Shown here piece after piece: positions 21,316 to 63,540 of a stretch of DNA of 64,000 nucleotides; position 1 is the first letter of the stretch; the number at the start of each line of letters is the position of its first letter. Below the pieces are notes generated by a model. The model was not told the DNA's origin. It saw only the letters and a program-made list of their open reading frames with translations, and made no database searches. Source of the stretch: Candidatus Cloacimonadota bacterium (GTDB taxonomy: Bacteria > Cloacimonadota > Cloacimonadia > Cloacimonadales > TCS61); contig DAOUTP010000001.1 in assembly GCA_030626645.1 (NCBI GenBank), positions 4,719-68,718 on the forward strand. Reading direction: 5' to 3'. Position numbers and translations under genes: made by a program.

Positions 21316-21331
21316 TCTAATAATATTTTTG

Positions 21332-21404
21332 AAGCGATGGAAGGATTTGAACCTCCGACCTTTAGGTTATGAGCCTAACGAGCTACCAACTGCTCCACAT
21401 CGCA
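21332..21404 (-). tRNA. tRNA with CAU anticodon (Met, or Ile2 if lysidinylated)
   Basis: The reverse complement folds as a cloverleaf: acceptor UGCGAUG/CAUCGCU (6 bp plus a U1-U72 mismatch); D arm GAGC-AGUUGGUA-GCUC; anticodon arm UUAGG-CUCAUAA-CCUAA; variable AGGUC; T arm GGAGG-UUCAAAU-CCUUC. No encoded CCA. Confidence 0.8.
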
Positions 21405-29957: not shown

Positions 29958-30027
29958 GTTTTTTGTATTTGTTTTTTCAACAGAAAAATAGTCCAGGAAA
30001 AGTACGACGAGCTGACGGACTAAGATA
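29958..30027 (-). promoter_or_regulatory. conserved upstream element, copy E1
   Basis: Minus-sense CTTATCTTAGTCCGTCAGCTCGTCG...CTATTTTTCTGTTGAAAAAACAAATACAAAAAAC, about 30 nt upstream of the terminase ATG. Homologous to E2-E4. Confidence 0.6.
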
Positions 30028-30034
30028 AGAAAAA

Positions 30035-34132: not shown

Positions 34133-34251
34133 ATGTAATTACAATGTGATTACATTTATACGTATTAATTATATAAATTTATACGTATAAATGTAACATT
34201 TGTTACATTTTCGCACATTTTATACGTACTAACTGTATAATTTTATACGTA
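34133..34251. promoter_or_regulatory. operator/iteron cluster
   Basis: Four TTATACGTA boxes (34156-64, 34179-87, 34220-28, 34243-51, paired at 23-bp spacing). Also the palindromes ATGTAAT-N9-ATTACAT (34133-57) and AAATGTAACA-TT-TGTTACATTT (34189-34210). Confidence 0.6.
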
Positions 34252-34263
34252 CACATTGATTAA

Positions 34264-34524
34264 ATGAGTAGATACAATATAGCTTCTAAAACCACAATGG
34301 CCAACGTAACAATGTTAAAGGAAATTGACAAAATTACAAAAGAACAAGGCAAAATAAGCACGACAGGCGACATATTAAGCAAATCCCTACACTTACATAT
34401 CAGAACGGTAGAAGAGACCTTAAACTCTCTTAGAATCGATTTGAATATCATTAAACTAAAACATGGACAATACAAATTAACACAAAAAGGGTATTGTATC
34501 CTACAATTCCTTAACAATCAATAA
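34264..34524 (+). CDS. putative transcriptional regulator
   Basis: 86-aa first gene behind the operator cluster. GDILSKSLHLHIRTVEETLNSL is a possible (w)HTH. Followed by the hairpin AACTCTT-N8-AAGAGTT. Confidence 0.5.
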   Translation: MSRYNIASKTTMANVTMLKEIDKITKEQGKISTTGDILSKSLHLHIRTVEETLNSLRIDLNIIKLKHGQYKLTQKGYCILQFLNNQ

Positions 34525-36286: not shown

Positions 36287-36372
36287 ACTCATCTTAGTCC
36301 GTCAGCTCATCGATCTTTTTTTAGTGTATTTTTCTACTGAAAAAACAAATATAAAAAAACCATAAATTTAAC
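36287..36372 (+). promoter_or_regulatory. conserved upstream element, copy E3
   Basis: ACTCATCTTAGTCCGTCAGCTCATCGATCTTTTTTTAGTGTATTTTTCTACTGAAAAAACAAATATAAAAAAACCATAAATTTAAC, 33 nt before ATG 36405. Confidence 0.6.
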
Positions 36373-37699: not shown

Positions 37700-37705
37700 T
37701 ATTTT

Positions 37706-37800
37706 ACTCATCTTAGTCCGTCGGGTCCTTAATCTTTTTTTAGTGTATTTTTCCGTTGGAAAATTAAAGATATGAAAATCATAGAATTAACTTATTAAAT
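37706..37800 (+). promoter_or_regulatory. conserved upstream element, copy E4 (diverged)
   Basis: ACTCATCTTAGTCCGTCGGGTCCTTAATCTTTTTTTAGTGTATTTTTCC...AATTAACTTATTAAAT, ending at ATG 37801. Confidence 0.55.
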
Positions 37801-38672: not shown

Positions 38673-38740
38673 CGTAAAAAGGATACTACATTAGTATATG
38701 ATCTATAAAAAAATAGATCATATACAGTGTTATGCCCCAT

Positions 38741-38932
38741 TTAAGACCGCAAAGAGCGGATGGGCGATAATTTAACTATCCTGTACCCATTTATTGTAAT
38801 GTCCGTTTTTTTTAGGCGGCTAAATTGATATTCTAAAATATGCTTCTTAACTCCGATAAGTTTAGCAAGCGGAGGAACACTCCCGTATATGCCGGGAGTG
38901 TCAGTTTCTATGTGTCGTGTCCAAAATTCCAT
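38741..38932 (-). CDS. small DNA-binding-like protein (possible homing-endonuclease C-terminal remnant)
   Basis: 63 aa. IYGSVPPLAKLIGVKKHILEYQFSRLKK...INGYRI resembles the HTH/NUMOD-type tails of GIY-YIG/HNH homing enzymes. Weak. Confidence 0.4.
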   Translation of the reverse strand: MEFWTRHIETDTPGIYGSVPPLAKLIGVKKHILEYQFSRLKKTDITINGYRIVKLSPIRSLRS

Positions 38933-38933
38933 C

Positions 38934-39158
38934 TTATTTATTTCTTAATACTTTGCAGTTATCATATCCGTAATGTGATGCTACTGCATAATCAGATTCT
39001 TCAATGCCATATTCAAAAGCCTTTTCTTCTTCTAAATCGCAATTTTCTAAAAAGAAATCCATTATTTCTTCCTCAGTTGGGTATTCTTCGTTATTATCAT
39101 TCCACAATACATAAAAACTCTCGTTGTAATCTTCTAAGTTTAATTTTAAATTTGACAT
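38934..39158 (-). CDS. small acidic protein
   Basis: 74 aa, strongly acidic (EEYPTEEEIMDFFLENCDLEEE), upstream of 38741..38932 in the same unit. Confidence 0.5.
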   Translation of the reverse strand: MSNLKLNLEDYNESFYVLWNDNNEEYPTEEEIMDFFLENCDLEEEKAFEYGIEESDYAVASHYGYDNCKVLRNK

Positions 39159-39442
39159 CTTTTTTATTTTTAAATAATTACTTCGTTATAATTATAGTAC
39201 AAATATACGACCTTATATTGCTTTCTCAACACTGGAAAATAAAAGTTATTAACAATTTGATGGTTTTATATTGTTTTAAGAACGCAAAGGAAAAAACGGG
39301 GCATAACACTAAATATAGCCCATTTGGCTACAAAATTGGTCCCTGAATGACAAGTCGGTCAATGCCAAACGTGCCATATTTTTAACGTTGTACTCCGTAT
39401 ATTATTATTTTGCGAATATTTTGTATATTAAATAAATCATAT

Positions 39443-47436: not shown

Positions 47437-50310
47437 TTATTTATTTAATTTACAATATTCACACTCGCCGCATCCTTCAGAAAACTCCTGATTTTTAATT
47501 TTCTGATAAACTTCTTTAATCTGATTTCTTACTTTTTGTTCATCTTCCACTTTAATGACTACTGTGTCTTTTTTCTCCGGAGTAACAAAAGCAATTTTGA
47601 TGTCTCTTACTTTCCATGATTTCCATTGTACTTCATCCATAGCTAATTTACAAAATTTCATTTGACGATAAACATCACCATCCGGTTTCATTTTACTTAA
47701 AGTTGATTTGTAGTTTCCAGTTTTATAATCCACCAAATCAATGATTTCACCATCAAATTCTATTTTATCAACTATTACTTTCACAGGAATATCATCAATA
47801 TTTACTTTAGCTGTAAATTCATTAAGTGTAATCTTATTACTATAACGAACTATTTTATCATAATACTCTAATAATACAATTTTACCTAACTCCGTTCTAC
47901 GCACTATTGCCTCTTTTGATAGTATTCCCTCACTTTTTGCTAAAGTGCTTCTAAAAGTCTCAAAAAGCCATTCTCCTGTGTGTTTTAATCCATTTTTATA
48001 ATCATTATAGTATCTCTGTAATGACACATGGATTGCTGTTCCATAAATACCTGCTTCGTTAGCAAGATATGGAACTTTAATTATATTTTGATAATAGAAT
48101 TGCACCGGACATTTCAAATAAAGATTCAAAGCCGATGGAGACAATCTGTAAAATTCCAATAATTTGGCAATATATTCTTTTTCTAAAGCCGGTTGAAACA
48201 CCTCTGGTTTTAAATTGTAAGACAAATGAGAAACAAAATCAGGTTCTTGTTCGTTTTGAATGATTTTTATTTCCGATTCATCAATAAACTGGCTTCTTTC
48301 CAAACCCTTATCATCATTTGTTTTACAAGAATAAGACATGATTAACTGTTTTCTTGCTCTGGTCATTGCCACGTAAAATAAACGTCTTTCTTGTTCCTCT
48401 TTGGCTGATTCGGTTTTAGTAATAGTTTCAGGTAATTTGAATCGGTTGACATTTCCCCGAGAACCTTCCCATTCATTTCTGGTGCATTTTATCATAAAAA
48501 CATAATCGAACTCTGTGCCTTTGGCCCCATGACACGTTAAAAAGTTTATTCCTTCTTCATTATAGTTAATATTCAAAACAGGAATACCAATACTGTTTTT
48601 TCTCAGATTTTCTATTAAACTCAATAATGCTTTAATATCAAGTAACGAATTTTTACTTACCTCTGCTTTTACAAAATCAAAAAAAGTTGTTAATTCAATA
48701 AACTTTTGAATTCTATCCGGTTGGTTATTGATGTATTCAATAATATTACAATTTTGAAATATTAATTCCATTAATTGAAGTAAAGTATGATTTTGAGAAT
48801 CTTTTTTTAATTGTTTTTTTACATATAAAAATGGTAAAAAATCTTTAAGAATAGCAGAAGATTTAAAATCTAAATCAGGAAATGTTTTCTCTGCAATTGA
48901 TTTCTCAATTTGTTCAATCGGGAGATTAAAGAAATTAAAAAATGCTATTTGATGTAGATTCTCACCTGTTTCAATATAATTAAGAATTTTAACAATTTGA
49001 TTTGTCAAAACTAAATCCAAAATATTGGTTCTTCTTTTGATATTAATAGGTATGTCTCTTTGCTGAAATTCTTTAATGATATTTAGGGAATGTTTGTGTT
49101 TTCGATAAATAACAGCAATATCACATGGATTTACACCATTATCTATCAATTCCAGAATTTCTTCAATAGTTCTCATTTCTTCTTCTGTTACAGTTTTATA
49201 CTCTACTGATAAAGAAATTGGATCATCGGCACGTTCAGGATTTCCTTGAATCATATCTACATCTCCTACAACTATTTCATTATGCCTGATTAGATTGGCT
49301 GCATAATCTATTATTTGTTGATTACTTCTATAATTATACTTTAAATTGATTTCAACAGGATTATATTTTCTTTGAAAATCAAGAATATTTTGCAAACGAG
49401 ACCCACTAAATTCATAAATTGTTTGTTGAAGATCACCAACGCAAAATATATTAGGATTTGGCCAAAAATCAATCAAAAGGTTTAATAATCTCATTTGACT
49501 TCTATTTGTGTCCTGGACTTCATCTACGAGTAGATATTGGTATTTTTCCTGGTATTGCCTTAGAAAATTTTCATTGTTCTCAAATGCTTTAATTACCCAT
49601 AGGAGAAGGTCTGAAAAATCAAATCTTTCAATTTCTGTTAATTTTGCATTGTATTGCTCCAACAAATATGCTCCAGCAATTAACTTATCCATTTTTTCCT
49701 TTTCAGAAGCAATTAAGTGTTTTTTTACATCTCCTACTTTTATTTCCTTTTTTTTATTTGCTCTTTTGTAGATGTATCTATCATCAAAAGGTAAATTTTC
49801 AAGATATTCATCGCACTTTTTCTCAATATCATCTTTTGTGTAATGTTCTTCTTTTAAAAATTGAAATAATTGAGTTAATCTACCAACTTCATAATAAATA
49901 TCACCAGATAATCTTTTAAGAATATGATTTATAGGAAGTTTATCAATAATCTCTTTTATTATTCCTATTTTTTCCAATTCTGAAACCGGTTCAACGTTTC
50001 TTACACCAAAATAATCCAGTCTGTTTTGGATAATATCATTAGAAAAGCTATGAAAAGTATGAATACCAATTTTATATGCTGTTGAACTGATATTTTTTAT
50101 AAGTTTTTGTCTCATGTTGATAGCACCTATGTCCGTGAATGTTAAACAAAGAATGTTCTCTGAATTTATTTGTGCAACCGACATTAACATTTTTTCAACA
50201 CGACTTGCTAATACAGTTGTCTTTCCTGTTCCGGCAGAAGCTGCAACATATACTGCTCCTTCAATTGTATCAACTGCGAATTGTTGTTCTTTATTTAGAT
50301 TTGTTTCCAT
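47437..50310 (-). CDS. UvrD/AddA-type SF1 helicase fused to a Cas4/AddB-like PD-(D/E)XK nuclease with Cys cluster
   Basis: 957 aa. Walker A is AASAGTGKTT and motif II is LLVDEVQDTN. The C-terminal nuclease region has LKCPVQFYY...IDLVDYKTG...CGECEYCKL (1+3 Cys Fe-S pattern). Confidence 0.8.
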   Translation of the reverse strand: METNLNKEQQFAVDTIEGAVYVAASAGTGKTTVLASRVEKMLMSVAQINSENILCLTFTDIGAINMRQKLIKNISSTAYKIGIHTFHSFSNDIIQNRLDYFGVRNVEPVSELEKIGIIKEIIDKLPINHILKRLSGDIYYEVGRLTQLFQFLKEEHYTKDDIEKKCDEYLENLPFDDRYIYKRANKKKEIKVGDVKKHLIASEKEKMDKLIAGAYLLEQYNAKLTEIERFDFSDLLLWVIKAFENNENFLRQYQEKYQYLLVDEVQDTNRSQMRLLNLLIDFWPNPNIFCVGDLQQTIYEFSGSRLQNILDFQRKYNPVEINLKYNYRSNQQIIDYAANLIRHNEIVVGDVDMIQGNPERADDPISLSVEYKTVTEEEMRTIEEILELIDNGVNPCDIAVIYRKHKHSLNIIKEFQQRDIPINIKRRTNILDLVLTNQIVKILNYIETGENLHQIAFFNFFNLPIEQIEKSIAEKTFPDLDFKSSAILKDFLPFLYVKKQLKKDSQNHTLLQLMELIFQNCNIIEYINNQPDRIQKFIELTTFFDFVKAEVSKNSLLDIKALLSLIENLRKNSIGIPVLNINYNEEGINFLTCHGAKGTEFDYVFMIKCTRNEWEGSRGNVNRFKLPETITKTESAKEEQERRLFYVAMTRARKQLIMSYSCKTNDDKGLERSQFIDESEIKIIQNEQEPDFVSHLSYNLKPEVFQPALEKEYIAKLLEFYRLSPSALNLYLKCPVQFYYQNIIKVPYLANEAGIYGTAIHVSLQRYYNDYKNGLKHTGEWLFETFRSTLAKSEGILSKEAIVRRTELGKIVLLEYYDKIVRYSNKITLNEFTAKVNIDDIPVKVIVDKIEFDGEIIDLVDYKTGNYKSTLSKMKPDGDVYRQMKFCKLAMDEVQWKSWKVRDIKIAFVTPEKKDTVVIKVEDEQKVRNQIKEVYQKIKNQEFSEGCGECEYCKLNK

Positions 50311-50311
50311 A

Positions 50312-50506
50312 TTAGAAAGGTATTTTAATTAAATTTTTATTTCTGATTTCATCTACTATTAAAATAGGGAGTTCGGTTTTAATTTTATACTGAATTACTT
50401 GTCGAACAAATTTTGATTTATTTATACCATATTTTTCTAATTTCCCTAAATTATTTACCATTTCGACAGTCATTCTAAATCTTTGTATTTCAGTTAATTT
50501 ACTCAT
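50312..50506 (-). CDS. ribbon-helix-helix DNA-binding protein, paralogue A
   Basis: MSKLTEIQRFRMTVEMVNNLGKLEKYGINKSKFVRQVIQYKI has a beta-strand-helix-helix layout. The track ORF starts 13 codons early. The first 15 codons plus 35 nt upstream are identical to paralogue B. Confidence 0.65.
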   Translation of the reverse strand: MSKLTEIQRFRMTVEMVNNLGKLEKYGINKSKFVRQVIQYKIKTELPILIVDEIRNKNLIKIPF

Positions 50507-50541
50507 AAATGTCCTACAAAAGGTGTGTATATCTACTGTTA
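50462..50541. repeat. 80-bp exact repeat, copy A
   Basis: Identical to 59520-59599. It ends at the GTTA core (50538-50541). Confidence 0.95.
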
Positions 50542-51010
50542 GCATTAATACTACGTAGCGGATCTAAATATCACTATCATACTATCGTGTTTCCCTTTGT
50601 TTTTAGTTGAGTATTCACCTTTTGTATTATATCCCTTAAATGCTATCCTACCCTTTATAAATCTAATTTCAGCATTTGGTAACATAAGTTCGTGAAATTG
50701 TTTTGTGCCTGTTGCACTTGGTATTAATAGCACACAAGTATTTCCTTTTTGCCATTCCTCGTAAGCCTTTTGTATAAATTTTGGTTTATTAACTCTATCA
50801 TAAGGAGGGTTAATAAAATTAGATTTTCCCCACCCGCATTCAAGCCCATCAAATTTTGCATTTAAAGGGCAAGGATCAAAGTCAAAGGCAAACTCTTGGT
50901 TTAGTTCATTATATAAATATTCTGGGGTTTTCCAATGGTTACTATTTTCTAATCCGTCTCTATTTTTCATATCAATTTTTGTTTTTAATTAAACCGTACT
51001 AATGCTAACA
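50537..51010. repeat. IR-bracketed unit 1 (TGTTAGCATTA / TAATGCTAACA, 11 bp)
   Basis: Arms at 50537-50547 and 51000-51010 are perfect reverse complements. Cargo is the Dam-type MTase. Confidence 0.85.
50551..50970 (-). CDS. phage Dam-family N6-adenine DNA methyltransferase (PF05869-like)
   Basis: HWKTPEYLYNELNQEFAFDFDPCP...NFINPPYDR...CVLLIPSATGTKQF shows WxTP, D-P-C and intact NPPY motifs. Confidence 0.75.
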   Translation of the reverse strand: MKNRDGLENSNHWKTPEYLYNELNQEFAFDFDPCPLNAKFDGLECGWGKSNFINPPYDRVNKPKFIQKAYEEWQKGNTCVLLIPSATGTKQFHELMLPNAEIRFIKGRIAFKGYNTKGEYSTKNKGKHDSMIVIFRSAT

Positions 51011-51048
51011 ATATGTAACAGGCATTAAAACGACCTGTTACACAAACC

Positions 51049-51298
51049 GTTATGTGGCATTTACAATACGGTTAATATCATTATGGAAATCTAAAGCATC
51101 ATCAATATTCATTCCTAACTCTAATCCAAGTTCTGCTGATGTGCACGTGCAAAAAGGATAGTCTTTTTTTATTAATCCATTTGCAGCCTTAGCACACTTT
51201 ATTGACCATAATAAATACTCTTTACCTCTTTTTGCTTTTAGTAGTCTTAATAAGTTTTGTTTATTGTGGAGTATTACTTTTAAATAACGCCACATAAC
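51049..51298. repeat. IR-bracketed unit 2 (GTTATGTGGC / GCCACATAAC, 10 bp)
   Basis: Arms at 51049-51058 (overlapping the stop) and 51289-51298 (inside the track ORF; contains an in-frame ATG). Confidence 0.85.
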
Positions 51299-51352
51299 AA
51301 TAGATAAAATCCATTGCTTAAATTGTGCTAACTTGTTAGTTTTATGTTTCAT
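51050..51352 (-). CDS. hypothetical protein
   Basis: Track ORF 51050..51397. Plausible starts are ATG 51352 (MKHKTNK...) or ATG 51295 inside the IR arm (MWRYLKV...). Confidence 0.5.
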   Translation of the reverse strand: MKHKTNKLAQFKQWILSIVMWRYLKVILHNKQNLLRLLKAKRGKEYLLWSIKCAKAANGLIKKDYPFCTCTSAELGLELGMNIDDALDFHNDINRIVNAT

Positions 51353-51414
51353 ATCAATATTATTATAAGTTTGAAAAATTATAATTCTAAATCGCAACGT
51401 ATCTTATCAAGAAC

Positions 51415-51645
51415 GTTATAAACAATTAACCAACTATTATAGTAGTTAATTGGTCTTGATAGTCTAATTTTGCATTTATAATACACTTATTTTTATCATC
51501 AAATGCTTTAGAGTGCCTAACTCTACCTTCTTCTTTGTTAATGTTTGTTGTTTCTGTTTGCTTCCATTTGTGTTGATTTCCAAATGGTATTATTTTATAT
51601 TCAAAATATTTCCCAGTTAATTTCATAATTTTATCAGTTTATAAC
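51415..51645. repeat. IR-bracketed unit 3 (GTTATAAAC / GTTTATAAC, 9 bp)
   Basis: Arms at 51415-51423 and 51637-51645, lying 2 nt past the stop and 10 nt before the ATG of 51426..51626. Confidence 0.85.
51426..51626 (-). CDS. hypothetical small protein
   Basis: 66-aa ORF, cargo of unit 3. Confidence 0.55.
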   Translation of the reverse strand: MKLTGKYFEYKIIPFGNQHKWKQTETTNINKEEGRVRHSKAFDDKNKCIINAKLDYQDQLTTIIVG

Positions 51646-51727
51646 ATCAGCTCATAAATAATAGCCGATGAAGATTAATACTATATTTCAAAGTTTGTGG
51701 TACGGCTACTATTCATAGCTGAGTACC
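51646..51727. repeat. inter-unit linker, copy a
   Basis: ATCAGCTCATAAATAATAGCCGATG...GGCTACTATTCATAGCTGAGTACC. Homologous to 52110-52190, 60991-61109 and 62450-62564. Confidence 0.8.
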
Positions 51728-52109
51728 GTTATAAAACATTTGCCACCGCACTAATTCAAGTCTTTTTTGTGACTCATGTTCCCATCTGTAATATGTACTT
51801 TTTTATCTGATAATTCGTCACTAAATGAATTACCGAGAAATCCCATAAGCATTCCAATTTTTGTATCGTAATGTGGATGGCATTCTTCATTGTATCCCTC
51901 TTCATCTGCTTTTTTACATACTGCACTAAATGTTTCTCTAATTTCTTTAGGTTGTATAAAATCTGGTTTGCAACAACTAAAGTCAGGGCAGCATTCATCA
52001 TCTACCTTGTTGTGTATTGGATTTCCTTTCACCCATTCTTCCAGTTGGTTGTTGCTTCTTTCTTTGTAATTATTTCCTTTTAAAGCCATCGCTCAAAACG
52101 TTTTATAAC
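51728..52109. repeat. IR-bracketed unit 4 (GTTATAAAAC / GTTTTATAAC, 10 bp)
   Basis: Arms at 51728-51737 and 52100-52109, the latter 10 nt before the ATG of 51751..52089. Confidence 0.85.
51751..52089 (-). CDS. hypothetical Cys-rich protein
   Basis: 112 aa with ECCPDFSCCKPDF...ECHPH. Cargo of unit 4. The overlapping frame 51774..52001 was rejected. Confidence 0.6.
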   Translation of the reverse strand: MALKGNNYKERSNNQLEEWVKGNPIHNKVDDECCPDFSCCKPDFIQPKEIRETFSAVCKKADEEGYNEECHPHYDTKIGMLMGFLGNSFSDELSDKKVHITDGNMSHKKDLN

Positions 52110-52190
52110 AACGGCTCATATTTAATTGCCGTTGTAAATTTGTGCTTAGTTTTGAAAGTTTATAGTTCGGCAACTAAACATAGCCAAACC
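52110..52190. repeat. inter-unit linker, copy b
   Basis: AACGGCTCATATTTAATTGCCGTTG...GGCAACTAAACATAGCCAAACC. Confidence 0.8.
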
Positions 52191-52562
52191 GTTAGCAGCA
52201 ATATTATTTTTTGCCACCGCACATTTCAACAGCAACTACATGCCCTACCTCCGCTTCTTCGTATGTAGCATATTTGTCTTGGTATTGGTCATGTTCTCCG
52301 CCAAATATCATTGTCTCAAACAATATAGGAGTGCCACCGCCAAATGAGTGGTCTAATCCTAAAAATACTGTTGAAACATTTACCTCTTTTGAAATCTCAG
52401 TTTTTGCAATATGTCTTTCGGCTGTCTCAAACCACTTAGCCCATTCCATCATATCATCAACTGTCTTAATTGTTTTCCCTTCTAAAATGTAATTTTTCAT
52501 CTTGTTTGTATTTTAATGTTTATAATTCCTTCCCTCAAATAAAAAATAAAAAAGCTGGTAAC
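52191..52562. repeat. IR-bracketed unit 5 (GTTAGCAGC / GCTGGTAAC, 9 bp, 1 mismatch)
   Basis: Arms at 52191-52199 and 52554-52562. Confidence 0.65.
52204..52500 (-). CDS. conserved phage protein of unknown function
   Basis: 98 aa. STVFLGLDHSFGGGTPILFETMIFGG...YATYEEAEVGH is a pattern I recognise from many phage hypotheticals. No function known. Confidence 0.65.
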   Translation of the reverse strand: MKNYILEGKTIKTVDDMMEWAKWFETAERHIAKTEISKEVNVSTVFLGLDHSFGGGTPILFETMIFGGEHDQYQDKYATYEEAEVGHVVAVEMCGGKK

Positions 52563-52609
52563 ACGTTGTAAAATTCATTGCGAAAAGCAACGAAATCTTA
52601 CAACCATAC

Positions 52610-52874
52610 GTTATAGGGCATTTAAGAATCCACCCCAGTTGAAAATAATGGCTTGCCACATTTGCAACATACAACCGCATAATCTTCGTTTGCATAATCT
52701 TGATAATATCCACATTCATCACCATTATCATAATCAATATCTTCCGAAAATTCTTTATTGGTATTAATTTCTTCCATTCTTTTTTCTATACATTCAAAGC
52801 AGTAGTAGTTGTCTTCATCTTCCCAAAATATCCAATTTGCTAATTCCTTATTCATAATAAAAACGCCCTATAAC
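52610..52874. repeat. IR-bracketed unit 6 (GTTATAGGGC / GCCCTATAAC, 10 bp)
   Basis: Arms at 52610-52619 and 52865-52874, lying 2 nt past the stop and 9 nt before the ATG of 52622..52855. Confidence 0.85.
52622..52855 (-). CDS. small acidic zinc-ribbon-like protein
   Basis: 77 aa with CFEC...CCKCG. Cargo of unit 6. Confidence 0.6.
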   Translation of the reverse strand: MNKELANWIFWEDEDNYYCFECIEKRMEEINTNKEFSEDIDYDNGDECGYYQDYANEDYAVVCCKCGKPLFSTGVDS

Positions 52875-52984
52875 AATGTATAATAAGTCATTGCCTCTAA
52901 GGTCTTTGTTTAAAATTTGTGTTTAATTATTAGTTTTATTTTCATCCTTAATTTTTGTGATGGCAACGCTTCTTATACTAAGCG

Positions 52985-53368
52985 TTATGCACAATAGAAG
53001 TATCCACGCCCACTTAACAATCCAGTATCTTCACTGAATGTAGCTTCGGTAGTTATTGCACCCTTTAGTTCTTTAATCAGCTTTTGTAGCTTATAGTTAG
53101 TCCAGCCAAACCTTTTAAGTATTCCCTTTTTACACGGCAAAATATCAGCAGTATTCCAAGCGTAAACATATAAGCATAATTTTTGGTGGGCGTTTAATTC
53201 GTCATAGTTTATTTTGCCTTCATCTCTGATACTATCAATAAACTGCTCATTATGGAAGCTTGTGTAGTAAGGTTTGTCTTCCACTCTGCTCTTAAAATCT
53301 ACTGTACCTAACAACGTATCATACGCCATTGGCTTGCTGTTATTTGTAGTTTCGTTCTTTTTTGTCAT
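52985..53368 (-). CDS. hypothetical protein (leader MAYDTLLGTV related to the linker-encoded AINYEPLLG)
   Basis: 127-aa ORF followed by the hairpin AACGCTT-N8-AAGCGTT. Confidence 0.6.
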   Translation of the reverse strand: MTKKNETTNNSKPMAYDTLLGTVDFKSRVEDKPYYTSFHNEQFIDSIRDEGKINYDELNAHQKLCLYVYAWNTADILPCKKGILKRFGWTNYKLQKLIKELKGAITTEATFSEDTGLLSGRGYFYCA

Positions 53369-58468: not shown

Positions 58469-59365
58469 TTATTGGCAAAAATATTTATGAACAGCCATAT
58501 TTTCTGCATTTTGTTTTTTTGAAATTCTGATATAATTCATAAAACCTTTCCATGTTGTATGCCCGGTTAACATTCTTACCATATTAGGATCCAATCCCGC
58601 TAAAACCATATTTGTTGCAGCACTCCTTCGTGCCGTATGGCTTGTAATAAGCTCATATTTGAGTTTAATGACATCTTTTTTACGTTTACCACCTCTGACC
58701 TCAGAAACAATGATTTTATCGTTGATGGAAGCCATTTCGCCTACACAACGTATTTTTTTAATAAATGTAGCAAGATTTTGAATTTTCAACTTTGAAAGAT
58801 CATAATCATATTTTTCTAAAATTTCCCGAACCATCCAATGAATAGGAATAATTACATGGCTTTGTGTTCTTTTGAAACCTTTGAATACATTTATTTTTAA
58901 AAAATCACCTTCCAAACTTTCAGGACGTATCTGAGTATAGTCTGATACCCGAAGTGTTGTGTGGGCACCAACCAAAAAAACATCTCTTATATGTTCTTCC
59001 TGGCCCGATAGATTTAATTCCCACATTCTTTCAAGTTCGACTGATGAAAGAACTATATGATCACAGTAAACCCAATTGAATTTGAATTCTTCATAGGGAT
59101 TTTTTAGTATTAAACCTTTTCTTATTGCTGACTTGATTATTTTTCTTAAATTAGAATGTTTTAATGAAATATAATTTGTTTTGTAGTCTTTATCTAATAA
59201 AAAATTATTGAAACTTTCTATGAATTCATAGTCAATATCCTTAAATTTAATATTTGAATTAAACTCATTTAATAACTTTAATGTTGTCATTTGAACATTA
59301 TAAGTAGTTAAGTTTAAGTTTCTGTTGTTTTTTAATTCGTTCTCGAAAAACTGGTTGAATGTCAT
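58469..59365 (-). CDS. tyrosine recombinase / integrase
   Basis: 298 aa with an N-terminal SAM-like core-binding region. The catalytic set is recognisable: TTLRVSD (Arg), HTARRS (His-x-x-Arg), LTGHTT (His), MNYIR (Tyr). Confidence 0.85.
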   Translation of the reverse strand: MTFNQFFENELKNNRNLNLTTYNVQMTTLKLLNEFNSNIKFKDIDYEFIESFNNFLLDKDYKTNYISLKHSNLRKIIKSAIRKGLILKNPYEEFKFNWVYCDHIVLSSVELERMWELNLSGQEEHIRDVFLVGAHTTLRVSDYTQIRPESLEGDFLKINVFKGFKRTQSHVIIPIHWMVREILEKYDYDLSKLKIQNLATFIKKIRCVGEMASINDKIIVSEVRGGKRKKDVIKLKYELITSHTARRSAATNMVLAGLDPNMVRMLTGHTTWKGFMNYIRISKKQNAENMAVHKYFCQ

Positions 59366-59369
59366 AATT

Positions 59370-59564
59370 TTAAAAAGGTATTTTTATTAAATTTTTCATT
59401 CTTTTTTCTTTTGCTAATAAAACAGAATAGTCTAAATTAATTTTTTCACGAATTGCCGTTCTTATAAATGTTGATTTTTTTATTCCAAATCTGGTTAAAT
59501 TGTTTAATTTTTCAACATCTTCGACAGTCATTCTAAATCTTTGTATTTCAGTTAATTTACTCAT
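59370..59564 (-). CDS. ribbon-helix-helix DNA-binding protein, paralogue B
   Basis: MSKLTEIQRFRMTVEDVEKLNNLTRFGIKKSTFIRTAIREKI. Lies 4 nt upstream of the integrase. Confidence 0.65.
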   Translation of the reverse strand: MSKLTEIQRFRMTVEDVEKLNNLTRFGIKKSTFIRTAIREKINLDYSVLLAKEKRMKNLIKIPF

Positions 59565-59599
59565 AAATGTCCTACAAAAGGTGTGTATATCTACTGTTA
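59520..59599. repeat. 80-bp exact repeat, copy B
   Basis: Identical to 50462-50541. It ends at the GTTA core (59596-59599). Confidence 0.95.
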
Positions 59600-59819
59600 T
59601 AAATCATTTACTCCTCTTCAAGTATTTGCTTTATCAGGTCGGCAGCCAAAATACGTTCAGCCTTTGTGTAGTTTTTCTCATACACTACATTTGTAACTAT
59701 TTTATACATATCATCCATCCTCTTGGTTTTACTCAAAGGCTTTCCACTCATTGGATGCCTTTGGTTTTTCTGTTGTTGAAACTTCGCAATAATATTTATC
59801 ATAAAAACGCTTTATAACA
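59595..59819. repeat. IR-bracketed unit 7 (TGTTATAAA / TTTATAACA, 9 bp)
   Basis: Arms at 59595-59603 and 59811-59819, lying 4 nt past the stop and 8 nt before the ATG of 59608..59802. Confidence 0.8.
59608..59802 (-). CDS. hypothetical small protein
   Basis: 64-aa ORF, cargo of unit 7. Confidence 0.55.
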   Translation of the reverse strand: MINIIAKFQQQKNQRHPMSGKPLSKTKRMDDMYKIVTNVVYEKNYTKAERILAADLIKQILEEE

Positions 59820-60034
59820 ATGTATATAAAAAATAAAAATCACTAACGTTCGTGCCGTCCGCAATTTTTGCACACTCTTGGGGCATTGGGGAAATCTAAC
59901 ACCCATCTGTTTGGTTTATACTCGTGGTCACACCACATTTGCTTCCATTTCAATCTTATCCAAATTTTAAAGTCTCCTATCATATCCGTAATTTTTAAAT
60001 TTTATATACTGGTCGTTATAAACCATAATTTGCC

Positions 60035-60277
60035 CTATATGTCACAATAGCATTTATTACACATAAGCCCTAAAATTGTTGGTTCACACTCTTCTTCACA
60101 GTTAGAGCAAATAACAGGTTTTATAACAACAGGTATAGTTAAATTTTTAACTTGCTCCTGTGCATATTCTTCCATAGCTTCTATAAATATGCTTAATGGT
60201 ATATCATCAAATCTTGCACTTTTATTCTTATCGTAAAAGTATTTAATGTGTTTGTCTAAAATCTTTTCTGCATTCAT
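60035..60277 (-). CDS. small Cys-rich protein
   Basis: 80 aa with CSNCEEEC...CNKCYC. Confidence 0.55.
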   Translation of the reverse strand: MNAEKILDKHIKYFYDKNKSARFDDIPLSIFIEAMEEYAQEQVKNLTIPVVIKPVICSNCEEECEPTILGLMCNKCYCDI

Positions 60278-60322
60278 ATCTGTATTTTTTATTCGTTAAA
60301 AATCAAACCATACCTGCGGCAC

Positions 60323-60990
60323 GTTAGGCAAAATGTTTAGCGACACTCTGCTCATCAGTTTGGTTTATCGGCATTATTAATATTTCAATATCATTCATTG
60401 AGAATAAACTCATAGAGTTCGGTTCTTTTTGAGATAGTAAAATAATTGAATCACTCTTTATATAATTAGCAATAGCAACTATTTTACTTAGATACTTCTC
60501 TTTAAATCGTGATTTTTTAATATCAATGAAATGATTTTTATCATATATTTTTCTACCTGTTTTTATTACATGGTTTTTGCTCAATTTTTTATCGCCATTA
60601 CAAACAGGGCAATCAAAGTAATCAGTATATCCCTCATATTCCCATTCAACTTCACCATTTCCTTCACATTCTTTACAAGTGTAGTCGCTTTCTACATTTC
60701 TAAATTCCTCAATTTTCGGTATACTGGTAATAGCCTCTTTTAATTCTGCTATCTTTATAGTGTATTTTAATTGTTTTTTATCAGGCATTATTCTTGCAAT
60801 ACTTTCTCTAATACTTTCTTTTATTGGTTCGTAATCATTTATGACACATTTCTTTGGCACTTTAATTAAAGCGTGTCCATCGGTAGCATAAACATAGTCG
60901 TCAATAATAAATGGTTCAATCATCCATTCTCTGTACGTGTCAGTACTGGTGAATAACTTTACAATTTCGTCATAAAACACTTTGCCTAAC
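60323..60990. repeat. IR-bracketed unit 8 (GTTAGGCAAA / TTTGCCTAAC, 10 bp)
   Basis: Arms at 60323-60332 (overlapping the stop) and 60981-60990 (inside the ORF at codons PLLGKV). Confidence 0.85.
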
Positions 60991-61046
60991 AACGGCTCAT
61001 AATTAATAGCCTTAGTTTTGTCGGTATTTTTACTATCTTTTTTCAT
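60324..61046 (-). CDS. hypothetical protein with DnaJ-type zinc knuckle
   Basis: 240 aa with CKECEGNGEVEW...CPVCNGDKK. The first 19 codons are encoded by linker copy c. Confidence 0.65.
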   Translation of the reverse strand: MKKDSKNTDKTKAINYEPLLGKVFYDEIVKLFTSTDTYREWMIEPFIIDDYVYATDGHALIKVPKKCVINDYEPIKESIRESIARIMPDKKQLKYTIKIAELKEAITSIPKIEEFRNVESDYTCKECEGNGEVEWEYEGYTDYFDCPVCNGDKKLSKNHVIKTGRKIYDKNHFIDIKKSRFKEKYLSKIVAIANYIKSDSIILLSQKEPNSMSLFSMNDIEILIMPINQTDEQSVAKHFA

Positions 61047-61109
61047 ATCAAGTTTATTTATAAGTTGAAATATTTGTCATTTTAAGTGGCTACTAATCAT
61101 AGCCAAACC
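60991..61109. repeat. inter-unit linker, copy c (partly coding)
   Basis: AACGGCTCATAATTAATAGCCTTAG...GGCTACTAATCATAGCCAAACC. Confidence 0.8.
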
Positions 61110-61360
61110 GTTATAGCCAATTAAGGCTTAATGTCTGTGGTTTTTACGGTCTTGCATAAATTAACAATGCTAATACAGTCTCTGCAATCAACTTTTTCTT
61201 TGGTTCTAATTCCCTTATTTATATCAAGCCCCGGGTCACCAGCTGTCTCAAGCCCACACAAGGTATAATCATTACTTACTGCATCAACATGAACCAAATT
61301 ATCATATCCTGTTTTTATTTTAATATGGAGTGCCATTCTCTAAAATTAACTGGCTATAAC
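61110..61360. repeat. IR-bracketed unit 9 (GTTATAGCCA / TGGCTATAAC, 10 bp)
   Basis: Arms at 61110-61119 and 61351-61360, lying 1 nt past the stop and 14 nt before the ATG of 61121..61336. Confidence 0.85.
61121..61336 (-). CDS. small Cys-containing protein
   Basis: 71 aa with TLCG...CRDC. Cargo of unit 9. Confidence 0.55.
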   Translation of the reverse strand: MALHIKIKTGYDNLVHVDAVSNDYTLCGLETAGDPGLDINKGIRTKEKVDCRDCISIVNLCKTVKTTDIKP

Positions 61361-61478
61361 AATGTATATAAAAAATACAGGGTGTCAGCCTAATTTATGC
61401 AGTTATACCACTTTTTTAAATTCTGTGAGTATCAGGTAGGTTACCGCTTCTATCTCCTGTACTTTTCATATACTTAAC

Positions 61479-61736
61479 GTTAAGCACAAGCTACTTTTTG
61501 TCAATTAATGTAACAAATTGCTTACTGTTTTTCGTTCCAATAAAACCACCATATCCTTTAATATTCCATTTGTATTTAGGTTTTGGTAATGGGAATTTAA
61601 GTGTATCCCATTTAGCACCATTATTTGTGTCTGCAATAAAGTGGTTATCAGTAGTTATTCCGCAATTTGACCATCCATCAGGGTACTCTACTTGTATTGT
61701 TCTTTCTTTTCGTTTTGCAAACCGCCAGTGCTTAAC
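61479..61736. repeat. IR-bracketed unit 10 (GTTAAGCAC / GTGCTTAAC, 9 bp)
   Basis: Arms at 61479-61487 and 61728-61736 (inside the ORF at codons SVKH). Confidence 0.8.
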
Positions 61737-61790
61737 ACTAAATATAGCAAATTTGCTTCTGTTCTTTGGGTATTGTTCTTCGTTATTCAT
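61491..61790 (-). CDS. hypothetical protein
   Basis: 99-aa ORF. The N-terminal 19 codons (..KFAIFS) are encoded by the shared flank. Confidence 0.55.
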   Translation of the reverse strand: MNNEEQYPKNRSKFAIFSVKHWRFAKRKERTIQVEYPDGWSNCGITTDNHFIADTNNGAKWDTLKFPLPKPKYKWNIKGYGGFIGTKNSKQFVTLIDKK

Positions 61791-61850
61791 TTTGTATATA
61801 ATTTAAAAGTTTGTAATTTTTTTCTAAGGCAAACTTGCCATATTATTTCC

Positions 61851-61957
61851 GTTAGCGGTCAGTTTTTTATTTCTAAACCGCAGTATTTGCATATGAACTT
61901 ATCTCCTTTAGGTATTGCTGTTCTGGTCAGGCAGGAGCAAAAAACCGAACCGCTAAC
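61851..61957. repeat. IR pair 11 (GTTAGCGGT / ACCGCTAAC, 9 bp) enclosing only the last ~30 codons of an ORF
   Basis: Arms at 61851-61859 and 61949-61957. Confidence 0.7.
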
Positions 61958-62107
61958 ATGCGGTATATTGCAGTTTTTTACTACCTTATCCTCCAACCAT
62001 TTTACATAATATTCAGAGAAAGTTATTGGTTGTCCTAACCAATCTGGAATTTCACAACCTTTCCCTGTCTCATTATCAAATTGCTCTCTTAATTTTTTTC
62101 TATTCAT
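61859..62107 (-). CDS. small Cys-rich protein
   Basis: 82 aa with CSC...CKYCG. Confidence 0.55.
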   Translation of the reverse strand: MNRKKLREQFDNETGKGCEIPDWLGQPITFSEYYVKWLEDKVVKNCNIPHVSGSVFCSCLTRTAIPKGDKFICKYCGLEIKN

Positions 62108-62156
62108 ATATTTAGTATTTTAATTCCGTAAAAAAACCACACTATACCGCCAGAGT

Positions 62157-62449
62157 GTTATGCCCCATAAGGCTATCTATCATATTCTTTAAAGAAATCA
62201 TCAACATCCATTTGCCCACCATCCTCAAAGTTCCCTTTTGTGGTGTTCAGAAACCTTTCAAGCTCTCTACGTATGTCATTTTTGTCAAGGTCAGTTTTTC
62301 CTTCACTCTTCAAATACTCTTTAAATTCATCTTTGCACTCCCAACATACATATCCTACACTTGGTACATAAATGTCACACATTATATTTTCGCATTCTTT
62401 TCTGCTACAGCTCATTACTCCCATGTTTTCTAAATTTACGGGGCATAAC
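62157..62449. repeat. IR-bracketed unit 12 (GTTATGCCCC / GGGGCATAAC, 10 bp)
   Basis: Arms at 62157-62166 and 62440-62449. Same arm sequence as the unit at 38726-39310 but different cargo. Confidence 0.85.
62173..62424 (-). CDS. small Cys-rich protein
   Basis: The track ORF begins at an ATG that is part of the IR arm. The likelier start is ATG 62424 (MGVMSCSRKECENIMCD...CWEC). Confidence 0.55.
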   Translation of the reverse strand: MGVMSCSRKECENIMCDIYVPSVGYVCWECKDEFKEYLKSEGKTDLDKNDIRRELERFLNTTKGNFEDGGQMDVDDFFKEYDR

Positions 62450-62564
62450 AACGGCTCATAAATAATAGCGGTTGTAGTGCTTATCCCAAGTTTATACTAT
62501 ATTTTTAATTTCGTTCATTAATCTAAATTCTGTGGTTTGTTTCCGCTACTATTCATAGCCCAAC
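62450..62564. repeat. inter-unit linker, copy d
   Basis: AACGGCTCATAAATAATAGCGGTTG...CGCTACTATTCATAGCCCAAC. Confidence 0.8.
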
Positions 62565-63022
62565 GTTACCCATAATACTACAAGTAACTTTCCATATCAG
62601 ATTTTACCTTGTCTAAATGGGTACTATTTTTTATTGTTTCTAATATTTTACCATCTTCAACTTTATAAAGAATAGCAAATAACTCTATCTTATCATTTTC
62701 AAACGAAAATACTGCAACGTAATCTTCTGTAATATCTCCACCTTTTGGAAAATCAAGTGATAAGTATATTCTTTTTGCACCGTTATTTTTATACTCGGCA
62801 AATCTTCTATAATAAGAAGCAACATCTCCACCTAATGCTAATGCGTTTATTTCAAACTTACTATCTTTTGTTTCTGCAAAAAGTTGAAATGGATAATGTC
62901 CGTAACATTCACTATCTTCTATAAAATCTACTTTTACCATTGTTTTTACAAATTCTTCTACTGTTTTCATTTTTATATAATTTTAAAGTTAATATTTCAA
63001 TTTAAACCGTACTATGGGTAAC
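62565..63022. repeat. IR-bracketed unit 13 (GTTACCCAT / ATGGGTAAC, 9 bp)
   Basis: Arms at 62565-62573 and 63014-63022. Cargo is 62578..62970. Confidence 0.8.
62578..62970 (-). CDS. hypothetical protein
   Basis: 130-aa ORF, cargo of unit 13. Confidence 0.65.
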   Translation of the reverse strand: MKTVEEFVKTMVKVDFIEDSECYGHYPFQLFAETKDSKFEINALALGGDVASYYRRFAEYKNNGAKRIYLSLDFPKGGDITEDYVAVFSFENDKIELFAILYKVEDGKILETIKNSTHLDKVKSDMESYL

Positions 63023-63098
63023 ACTAAATATACCCCATATTCCGTTGCACTCCATACGGTGCATATTCTTGTCCGTTAGTTTTTTTAAAAAAAAAACA

Positions 63099-63518
63099 TT
63101 ACAACCACATTGAGTTATCTATTGCAGCTCTCCCACAAATAGAACAGGCTACACTACCACCCCTAACATTTTCAAAATGTTTCTCGTAATTTTCAGGAGT
63201 ATTCTCAACTCTATCACCATTTTCCAAAAACAATAAACTTAAATCTTCATTGCATTCATGGTCTGTCGGTTCGCCACCACACATTATAGCAGTAGCATTT
63301 CCGAGTTTTACTATTTTACAACCTTGTCTCATATATATGTAATTTACCATTTGCTTCAGAAATTTTATTATCATTTCCATTTCAAAATTTTCTGAAGCAA
63401 ATGATAAATAATCAACCGGATTTTCGTAATGATGTCGGTTTCTTTCAATATGATCTTTAAGATGACTAAATTTCACTGTATTATTATGCAATTTTTTCCA
63501 TTTACGTACTCCTTTCAT
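63099..63518 (-). CDS. hypothetical Cys-containing protein, first gene of the long minus operon
   Basis: 139-aa ORF (CGGEPTDHEC...CSICG) directly behind the TATCTTTG box. Confidence 0.65.
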   Translation of the reverse strand: MKGVRKWKKLHNNTVKFSHLKDHIERNRHHYENPVDYLSFASENFEMEMIIKFLKQMVNYIYMRQGCKIVKLGNATAIMCGGEPTDHECNEDLSLLFLENGDRVENTPENYEKHFENVRGGSVACSICGRAAIDNSMWL

Positions 63519-63532
63519 AACTTATTTTTCTG

Positions 63533-63540
63533 CAAAGATA
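63533..63540 (-). promoter_or_regulatory. -7 box TATCTTTG driving the 63.5-to-40 kb minus-strand genes
   Basis: Minus-sense TATTATCTTTGCAGAAAAATAAGTTATG. The box ends 14 nt before ATG 63518. Confidence 0.55.

Follow-up and report, generated by a model that had tools for sequence, protein, structure and literature searches.

A phage contig of 71 kb (DAOUTP010000001.1 of the GenBank assembly GCA_030626645.1, deposited as Candidatus Cloacimonadota bacterium) carries a series of small open reading frames (ORFs), each boxed by an inverted repeat of its own. The whole stretch considered in the current analysis, referred to as the window, comprises 64,000 nucleotides of this contig (positions 4,719 to 68,718 of the forward strand). 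All the ORFs between 40 and 64 kb of the window are encoded on the minus strand. The series, termed array B, extends from 59596 to 63078. It is adjoined by the gene of a 64 aa protein resembling ribbon-helix-helix (RHH) proteins (59370..59564, minus strand) and by that of a 298 aa tyrosine recombinase (58469..59365, minus strand), the stop codon of the former lying 4 nt upstream of the start codon of the latter. The recombinase comprises a core-binding and a catalytic domain and has neither the arm-binding domain nor the insertion characteristic of the integron integrase IntI. On the plus strand the order of leftward recombinase gene, leftward RHH-like gene, junction and cassettes is the geometry of a classical integron, and the integron-like layout claimed in a preliminary description of this region is upheld. 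Upstream of the array is a non-cassette ORF of 139 aa (63099..63540, minus strand) with no match in Pfam. The sequence before it at 63533-63540, CAAAGATA, earlier called a distal promoter, reads as a TAnnTTTG-like box on the minus strand. The Bacteroidetes promoter pattern is not significantly enriched (8 matches, 5.9 expected), and no full TTTG-N17-21-TAnnTTTG match is found on the coding strand of the arrays.

Seven units had been reported in array B, and their arm pairs are all perfect reverse complements at the positions given for them. All the seven are real; two more units are found inside 59815-60326, the total being 8. The control against randomised sequence was run with first-order Markov simulations (n=500) for arms spaced by 50-900 nt. 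Exact 9-nt pairs of the form GTTA+N5 ... N5'+TAAC occur 6 times in 59501-63100, against a simulated mean of 0.25 and a maximum of 3 in 500, an enrichment of about 25-fold. The entire window has 14 such pairs (3.0 +/- 1.9 expected), those beyond array B lying in another cluster (50538-52866) and, singly, at 38729/39299. When pairs are chained head to tail, with the next GTTA 30-260 nt past the preceding TAAC, the longest chains in the window have 6 and 4 links. Chains of at least 2 links number 9 in the 1.79 Mb that make up all the sequence examined and 3 in 5.36 Mb of simulated sequence. The original observation is thereby confirmed as real and far above chance. In a separate Logan assembly of this run, contig L146 (3463 bp) has array B with the same genes in the same order.

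The spacers between the TAAC of one unit and the GTTA of the next are imperfect palindromes of 47-207 nt. The sites examined number 21, of which 12 belong to the window and 9 to other phage contigs. Their arm complementarity scores have a median of 12, as compared with 6.0 +/- 1.6 for 110 other TAAC..GTTA pairs of the window (Mann-Whitney p = 2e-11). When folded with TAAC and GTTA forced to pair, the strand with the sense of the ORF is the more stable one in 20 of the 21 sites (mean -10.7 vs -7.8 kcal/mol), and it has on average 3.1 G.T pairs per site (opposite strand, 1.05). This strand is 55% purine. It closes with an R box of 5 bp, in which 5'-TAACG is paired with TGTTA-3', so that a G.T wobble lies beside the core in 19 of the sites. 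The R box is followed by a bulge of 1-5 nt on the 5' arm (2-5 nt in 20 sites) with nothing opposite in 16, and then by a second helix that corresponds to the L box. In 10 sites, which belong to unrelated sequence families, one extrahelical G is present at pair 9-13 of the 3' arm, and site c of contig L111 has three bulges (G, C and T) about 3 bp apart. The anatomy is constant across the 21 sites although their sequences are unrelated, and all of them close with TAAC/GTTA.

The three families of conserved flanks noted earlier are present as described, and they represent the conserved arms of three families of sites, GGCTCATAA, AATGTATATA and ACTAAATATA. Different cargos are joined to these flanks precisely at the GTTA/TAAC core, which bears out the fixed crossover point proposed for them. 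GTTA is invariant across 34 cassettes. Position 5 is T in 21 of these (62%) and a purine in 11, and position 7 of R' is a purine in 22 where the classical consensus (GTTRRRY for R', RYYYAAC for R'') expects Y. The hairpins have no match in Rfam, and their energy z-scores against shuffled sequences range from -0.2 to -4.9, being weak for sites with long AT-rich loops. Two scans of the window for new sites did not separate the signal: a semi-global alignment of arms recovered 20 TAAC..GTTA palindromes against 10 in simulations, and a de novo constrained-fold scan (stems of at least 15 pairs) recovered 19 against 13-21. The latter is uninformative because AT-rich DNA yields long weak stems, and the chains of pairs and the arm scores have therefore been relied upon.

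The class 1 integron of pFBAOT6 with its aadA2 cassette has served as a positive control. The aadA2 cassette is boxed by GTTAGACA ... TGTCTAAC, and an ORF boxed by GTTA...TAAC can thus be recognised as a signature of integron cassettes. Its top (coding) strand starts with G/TTAGACA, the stroke marking the cassette start, and ends with TGTCTAAC-A...C-GTTAGAT. The coding strand of its attC site reads TAACA...CGTTA and the bottom strand TAACG...TGTTA. When folded, this bottom strand has an R box of 5 bp, a spacer that is unpaired and, on the 3' arm, an extrahelical G, like the phage sites. The reason for which the region had been set apart from classical integrons, namely that the arms flank the ORF and no compact attC is formed, is wrong on both counts, since classical cassettes show flanking arms and compact attC-type hairpins do occur between the units. 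Only AAC/GTT is conserved among attC sites, which are cleaved on the bottom strand between the A and C of AAC (Nivina et al. 2016, PMC5027507). Their bottom strand is the more stable, has more G:T mispairs (1.24 vs 0.39) and carries the extrahelical bases on the arm opposite AAC (PMC5027507). The 21 phage sites show the same asymmetry in stability, in G:T enrichment and in extrahelical bases, and as AAC/GTT-closed imperfect hairpins with R and L boxes they have the architecture of the aadA2 attC.

The crossover G positions of array B are 59596, 60015, 60323, 61110, 61479, 61851, 62157, 62565 and 63075, which delimit eight cassettes, all with ORFs on the minus strand. Cassette B1 (59597..60015) has an ORF of 64 aa (59608..59802) and an attC-type site of 204 nt (59815-60018) that itself encloses an ORF of 46 aa (59843..59983); its arms are GTTATAAA / TTTATAAC and its fold has -18.0 kcal/mol on the minus strand vs -12.9 on the plus strand. 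Cassette B2 (60016..60323) encodes 80 aa (60035..60277) from a start codon within its 203-nt site (60124-60326), with arms GTTATAAACC / GTTTTATAAC that have 1 mismatch and a fold of -18.0 vs -12.4 kcal/mol. Cassette B3 (60324..61110) comprises an ORF of 240 aa (60324..61046) that matches phrog_20807 (8e-47, aligned from residue 27) and a site of 127 nt (60987-61113) of the GGCTCATAA family, with exact 10-nt arms. Cassette B4 (61111..61479) has an ORF of 71 aa (61121..61336), a site of 126 nt (61357-61482) of the AATGTATATA family, exact 10-nt arms and a fold of -10.3 vs -6.0 kcal/mol. At the 3' end of its site is a 12-nt palindrome, CTTAACGTTAAG (61473-61484), and a comparable sequence, TAACATGGATGTTA, occurs at the border of flank and array of L111 (~12325-12340). 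Both resemble 'empty' sites, R'' adjoining R' with hardly anything in between.

Cassette B5 (61480..61851) has an ORF of 99 aa (61491..61790) whose start codon is inside its own site of 122 nt (61733-61854, ACTAAATATA family), the 9-nt arms being exact. In cassette B6 (61852..62157) the N-terminal half of an 82 aa ORF (61859..62107) is coded within a site of 207 nt (61954-62160), with exact 9-nt arms and a fold of -20.7 vs -14.5 kcal/mol. Cassette B7 (62158..62565) has an ORF at 62173..62424 (up to 62451 if TTG is the start) and a site of 123 nt (62446-62568, GGCTCATAA family) with exact 10-nt arms and an extrahelical G on the 3' arm of the minus strand. Cassette B8 (62566..63075), at the far end of the array, has an ORF of 130 aa (62578..62970) and a site of only 60 nt (63019-63078, ACTAAATATA family), with exact 10-nt arms and a weak fold (-3.9 vs -1.8 kcal/mol). 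Between this site and the stop codon of the 139-aa ORF is a T7A10 run, GTTTTTTTAAAAAAAAAAC (63079-63097). Cassettes B2, B6 and the first-position cassette of L144, a 1.1-kb contig from another sample, are homologous and constitute one cassette family found at three positions. The idea that B6 (arm pair 61851-61957) represents a C-terminal domain exchanged by domain swapping has been dropped because these three ORFs are homologous over the full length, the attC being part of the same cassette. An attC-encoded leader peptide as a general feature has also been rejected, as the frame upstream of B7 is closed and the PHROG alignment of B3 begins after GTTA.

At the recombinase end, array B begins at a junction of 80 nt (59520..59599) that ends exactly with GTTA (59596-59599, a position corrected here), the crossover being placed at G/TTA. 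A second junction at 50462..50541, ending with GTTA at 50538-50541, is identical to it over all the 80 nt. This junction lies beside the paralogous RHH-like gene A (50312..50506, minus strand; 64 aa), whose product is 59% identical to that of gene B. The block of identity starts inside the two RHH-like genes and stops right after GTTA. The same core block, ATATACACACCTTTTGTAGGACATTTATG... / ATATACACACCTTTTGTAGGACATTTATGAGTAAATTAACT after TAAC + 6 nt, is found on L144 with another first cassette; the first cassette is thus a different one at each of the three junctions, and the join is always at the core. The block would look like an attI, and we consider it a putative one from its sequence and position. 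It has been found neither in viral contigs nor in 185,579 bacterial and archaeal genomes, the lone metagenome match being due to chance. Only the B module of the three has an adjoining recombinase. Directly downstream of RHH-like gene A is a UvrD-type helicase fused to a PD-(D/E)XK nuclease (47437..50310) with no recombinase there, and the L144 module is adjoined by a DnaA_C-domain protein. In the Logan contigs L001, L145 and L146 (SRR22839553) the short-read assembly breaks exactly at the junction block and at attC sites. Metagenome assemblies will therefore systematically fragment and under-detect such arrays.

The RHH-like protein B has no match in Pfam, and its sequence searches against PDB are empty. 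It matches PHROG 25647, of unassigned function, with 5.8e-6, and has only two homologues in 5.8 billion proteins, P0065 of L144 being found besides the A-type paralogue. The AlphaFold2 model shows two helices at low confidence (predicted local distance difference test score of 64), and the hhalign alignment of the protein to CopG is in the expected register with a probability of only 8%. An RHH fold is plausible from the sequence pattern and is unconfirmed by the searches or the model. The three RHH-like proteins (59370-59564, 50312-50506 and 437-631 of L144) have the same N-terminus, MSKLT, and all end with the invariant tail KNLIKIPF, which might serve as a peptide for docking to a partner protein.

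Comparison with related phage contigs reveals that the differences consist of whole cassettes with breaks at TAAC/GTTA. The contigs L043 and L045, 99.6% identical over 3.77 kb, are identical through their last cassette and its attC up to ...AAACGTTA and are unrelated from the very next base, after GTTA. L111 and L116 have a common core flank followed by unrelated first cassettes, one encoding a HAD_SAK_2 protein and the other a 192-aa protein. They also share an attC of 84 nt, from TCTAAC to GTTAT, with unrelated ORFs on both sides, after which they diverge again. Between the last core gene and the array both have, at the same position (~12125-12330 in L111), a conserved GC-rich non-coding element of 200 nt (CAGGGTTTAGCACACCTAGTCCCGCCTCGTAAGACGCTGTATGCCACCGATGGG...) that could be a small RNA or the junction site of that lineage. 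By blastn, the window is homologous to other phage contigs only within attC sites, with TAAC and GTTA marking the limits. The identities are 97% to L054, 92% to L033, 91% to L007 and 81% to L043/L045, the values for L033 and for L043/L045 being those of the B3 site. No GenBank phage has the families of the B3 and B4 sites by blastn, and the site family is not found in the 185,579 bacterial and archaeal genomes.

The closest published parallel is provided by attC-site clusters without integron integrases (CALINs), which Qi et al. (2023, PMC9892861) described in 17 phages, one of them being P12002L, a virulent phage of Polaribacter. IntegronFinder defines a CALIN by two or more attC sites recognised with the attC covariance model and no intI within 4 kb. 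IntI1 recombined 5 of 6 phage sites tested in that study, among them P12002L_attC2 at the border of the cassette of that phage; the sole failure was P12002L_attC1, a site predicted by HattCI (PMC9892861). The published P12002L_attC1 oligonucleotide corresponds to a site found independently in the current analysis at 30008-30056 of P12002L. It shares with the site 51006-51052 of the window the loop GGTCGTTTTAATGCC and the ends TAACGG...ATTGTTA, the stem varying by compensatory changes. Boxed ORFs of P12002L (29237/30011, 37263/38038 and 38087/38882) have the same polarity as those of the window, and its complete genome has no tyrosine recombinase. The phage CALINs are alike in their cassette arrays, attC-type hairpins, absence of IntI and a cargo that includes DNA methyltransferases. 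The published account predicts 2-3 sites per phage and does not report the chains of boxed ORFs, the inverted coding polarity or a junction site. Unlike P12002L, the window has 6 + 8 + 1 cassettes, a junction block duplicated beside RHH-like genes and a recombinase next to one of the arrays.

On the basis of the anatomy of the sites, their strand asymmetry, the polymorphism at the level of cassettes and the conservation of the junction, we regard the region as an integron-type, CALIN-like array of gene cassettes, one of two in this phage, with a probability of roughly 0.8. Like classical integrons, it has AAC/GTT-closed hairpins with R and L boxes, an unpaired spacer, an extrahelical G and an excess of G.T pairs on one strand. 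The start of each cassette is complementary to its own R'', and a conserved junction ending in GTT lies beside a leftward recombinase gene. Near-identical attC families attached to unrelated ORFs are shared with sedentary chromosomal integrons. Unlike classical integrons, the phage arrays have no IntI, and their coding strand is the bottom-type strand, TAACG...TGTTA, in all window cassettes and in L111, L007, L060, L062, L043, L116, L144 and P12002L. The arrangement of an ORF on the top strand, an attC 3' of it and the cassette promoter (Pc) at the attI end is thus not what is found: the attC is 5' of the ORF and transcription runs towards the junction. They differ further in an R' that is mostly GTTAT and not GTTRR, in an asymmetric spacer, in having several start codons inside attC, in residing on a phage and in the likely host phylum, Bacteroidetes, in which integrons are almost absent (PMC9024848). 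The array is hence of a known kind, and it differs in polarity, attC placement, R' sequence, absence of IntI and a duplicated junction module with an RHH-like gene.

For the chemistry of recombination and its enzyme we infer the following. The cassette unit on the plus strand would be TTA-N6, the antisense ORF, N6'-TAAC, the imperfect hairpin and a final G. The single-stranded minus strand may fold like the bottom strand of a classical attC with a variable loop, and a tyrosine recombinase would cut TAA/C on the folded strand, that is, G/TTA on the plus strand. Recombination between two sites would free a circular cassette in which pairing of the two unit-specific arms extends the R box to 9-10 bp, and it is for this reason that each ORF would be boxed by its own inverted repeat. 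The cassettes could re-enter at another site or at the candidate attI adjacent to the RHH-like gene. Since it is the folding, bottom-type strand that carries the ORFs, every attC is located 5' of the ORF it belongs to, and a cut at TAA/C of that strand would assign each attC to the cassette whose ORF is 3' of it. A start codon or N-terminal coding sequence inside the site (at least in B2, B3, B5 and B6) is then unremarkable, and the earlier notion that exchange supplies B3, B5 and B6 with an N-terminal leader from a shared flank is unneeded, the attC being the 5' part of the same cassette. The array would be transcribed towards the junction, into the RHH-like and recombinase genes.

The recombinase encoded beside array B matches PF13102 (4e-16) and PF00589 (6.5e-9), and its catalytic Arg, His-x-x-Arg and Tyr are visible in the sequence. 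It is not an IntI, as had been noted earlier: TIGR02249 scores 18.5 bits, the cutoff being 265, and matches only residues 214-286. Between the anchors of box I/beta-hairpin and box II it has 67 residues vs 94 in IntI1 (reference sequence checked against plasmid annotations), about 27 being missing at the place of the IntI1 insertion. No second tyrosine recombinase is encoded in the window or in the 2.5 kb past its end (66 kb of the 71-kb contig). The closest homologue is 39% identical, and all the named homologues belong to Bacteroidota and carry an arm-binding domain; a search of viral contigs gave no relatives of the recombinase. Because of these homologues and the link to P12002L, the host of the phage is probably a member of Bacteroidota. 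An enzyme supplied in trans, by a host Xer-type recombinase or IntI or by a co-infecting element, comes close to an even chance, and it is at least as likely as the local one since relatives with the same arrays encode none. The phage's own recombinase, with the RHH-like protein, is the candidate nearest at hand, put forward tentatively, and the remainder falls to the arrays being fossils.

Non-IntI tyrosine recombinases are known to act on folded single-stranded sites, as exemplified by the Xer enzymes in the integration of CTX-phi. The pdif modules of Acinetobacter plasmids are flanked by inverted recombinase sites and occur in arrays, and dif/pdif sites are conserved duplexes of 28 bp with fixed XerC and XerD arms. 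The phage sites are unlike these Xer-dependent elements, their outer arms being unit-specific and the sites being hairpins of 47-207 nt. By analogy, such hairpins might in principle be served by an Xer-type enzyme of the host.

Several observations weigh against the array being an integron-type system. No circle, deletion or reordering product has been observed for this phage, and the polymorphism comes from metagenome-assembled relatives, in which repeats could in principle give chimeric joins. The z-scores of several long sites are only -0.2 to -1.7, and the bias of G.T pairs to the sense strand could result in part from coding strands being rich in purines. In contrast to that of aadA2, the unpaired spacer is asymmetric, and the R' extension, mostly GTTAT, departs from the classical GTTRRRY. 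As to the enzyme, the local recombinase lacks the IntI insertion and has no close relatives, and its homologues at 32-39% identity sit in phages devoid of arrays (those at 32-37% in unrelated phages). P12002L (complete genome), L111 with L149 (27 kb), L060 and L062 have arrays and no tyrosine recombinase.

Within the integron-type reading, a self-contained phage integron, in which the 298-aa IntI-less recombinase and the RHH-like proteins at the 80-nt junctions serve both the arrays, is a tentative sub-case. The plus-strand geometry of a classical platform, the sole tyrosine recombinase in 66 kb with its catalytic residues in place, and the absence of the arm-binding domain that 410 of 437 phage tyrosine recombinases have (Smyshlyaev et al. 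2021, PMC8138268) all speak for it. So do the failure of IntI1 on P12002L_attC1, which is of the same family as the site 51006-51052, the near absence of integrons from Bacteroidetes and the absence of both the attC family and the junction block from the bacterial and archaeal genomes searched. It has to contend with a recombinase adjoining just one of three RHH/junction modules, with array-bearing relatives that encode none, with homologues not associated with arrays and with the binding of folded DNA by this recombinase being putative. Conversely, the half of bacterial CALINs that reside in genomes without intI (PMC4889954), the success of IntI1 on phage sites including P12002L_attC2, and an architecture that matches classical bottom strands down to the extrahelical G and the three bulges of L111 site c would suit an ordinary CALIN, its attC sites being moved by the IntI of a host and the phage recombinase being an unrelated enzyme of lysogeny or resolution. 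This is unlikely, since the coding polarity is inverted in every cassette (14 of the arrays, the solitary one described below and those of 8 other phage sequences), R' differs from GTTRRRY, P12002L_attC1 failed with IntI1, the likely host phylum is almost devoid of integrons and the site family is not found in the bacterial genomes searched.

The hairpins might instead be regulatory, acting as terminators, RNase III sites or elements of translational control, with a turnover by homologous recombination as in the Promoter early Stem-Loop (PeSL) cassettes of T4-type phages. The stabler strand is the mRNA sense, where G.T of DNA would be G.U of RNA, one hairpin precedes every ORF of a co-directional operon, and the attC families are repeated in the genome such that homologous exchange is possible. 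PeSL cassettes, like the phage arrays, involve small non-essential ORFs in hyperplastic regions and repeated stem-loops, and the PeSLs mediate modular shuffling and mini-circles (Arbiol et al. 2010, PMC2839356; Comeau et al. 2014, PMC4122927). A PeSL is an early promoter and terminator stem-loop exchanged by homology of the repeats, which the arrays do not display. Their hairpins have invariant TAAC/GTTA ends, unit-specific extensions and breaks at a fixed dinucleotide, all signs of site-specific recombination. A regulatory role leaves unexplained why the 5-6 nt outside a hairpin pair with the far side of the adjacent ORF and not with each other, why unrelated hairpins have the same closure and why the 80-nt block ends exactly at GTTA, and neither an Rfam match nor promoter enrichment accompanies it; we consider it improbable as the sole explanation, though an RNA-level role could coexist with recombination. 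The long-range mRNA stems suggested earlier are likewise unsupported, as they cannot explain the breakpoints of homology at GTTA between related phages. Single-gene invertons, the other suggestion made there, draw on the inverted repeat around each ORF and together with chance or an assembly artefact deserve hardly any credence. Neither both orientations nor any departure from co-oriented ORFs is seen in the contigs examined, the arms run on into the hairpin sites and are no longer than 9-10 bp, the statistics of enrichment and chaining exclude chance, two assemblies agree, and the same anatomy is present in the genome of a cultured phage, P12002L.

The second array of the window, array A (50539..52984, minus strand), comprises six cassettes whose arm pairs have 0-2 mismatches in 10 nt. 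Its crossover G positions are 50538, 51049, 51415, 51728, 52191, 52610 and 52984. The ORFs are at 50551..50970, 51050..51397, 51426..51626, 51751..52089, 52204..52500 and 52622..52855, and the attC-type sites at 51006-51052, 51295-51418, 51642-51731, 52106-52194, 52559-52613 and 52871-52987. In all the 14 cassettes of the two arrays the 10-nt arms have 0-2 mismatches, and each cassette begins with a sequence complementary to R'' of the attC that it carries. The first ORF of array A encodes a Dam-type methyltransferase (PF05869, 4e-18). Apart from it and the phrog_20807 protein of B3, the cassette products are small proteins without family, many of them Cys-rich or acidic and many with CxxC pairs, and the cargo is probably made up of accessory or anti-defence genes.

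A solitary cassette (38729..39390, minus strand) has the arms GTTATGCCCC (38729-38738) / GGGGCATAAC (39298-39307) and an attC-type site of the ACTAAATATA family (39304-39390; -12.4 kcal/mol on the minus strand) that closes with GTTG and not GTTA. Its arms have the same sequence as those of B7, the contents being unrelated, and its ORFs are on the minus strand within a block of plus-strand genes. It may be an insertion at a secondary site. A TAAC...GTTA hairpin of 124 nt (34194-34317; -13.2 kcal/mol on the minus strand) without partner arms sits in the non-coding stretch of 33.8-35.4 kb between oppositely oriented gene blocks and may represent another site or an origin. Downstream of each of two plus-strand genes is a copy of an intergenic motif, ACTCATCTTAGTCCGTC...TTTTTTTAGTGTATTTTTC (~36287-36340 and 37703-37760), that looks like a conserved terminator or regulatory element. 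The window also encodes a second, non-cassette DNA methyltransferase (phrog_67, 30035-31363) and a tRNA-Met gene (21331-21404).

Integrons are the main known system that captures genes as cassettes, and they are regarded as bacterial and dependent on IntI. What is new in the current analysis is that the logic of folded sites builds multi-cassette arrays in uncultivated phages and in a cultured Polaribacter phage, with reversed polarity and no IntI. If the sites are active, these phages would hold a modular store of accessory genes, probably directed against host defence, that can be swapped gene by gene. A recombinase other than IntI may read attC-type hairpins, which is relevant to how attC sites and cassettes arose, a question still unsolved. 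The more specific proposal of a phage integron analogue without IntI, in which a short CTnDOT-related recombinase acts with an RHH-like partner at the 80-nt attI-like site, is somewhat unlikely. If it is true, there are cassettes with genes on the recombinogenic strand, each bringing its own 5' leader or start codon, and phages of this kind could service in trans the recombinase-less arrays of related virulent phages. They would then represent an independent or ancestral branch of integrons in a phylum thought to lack them.

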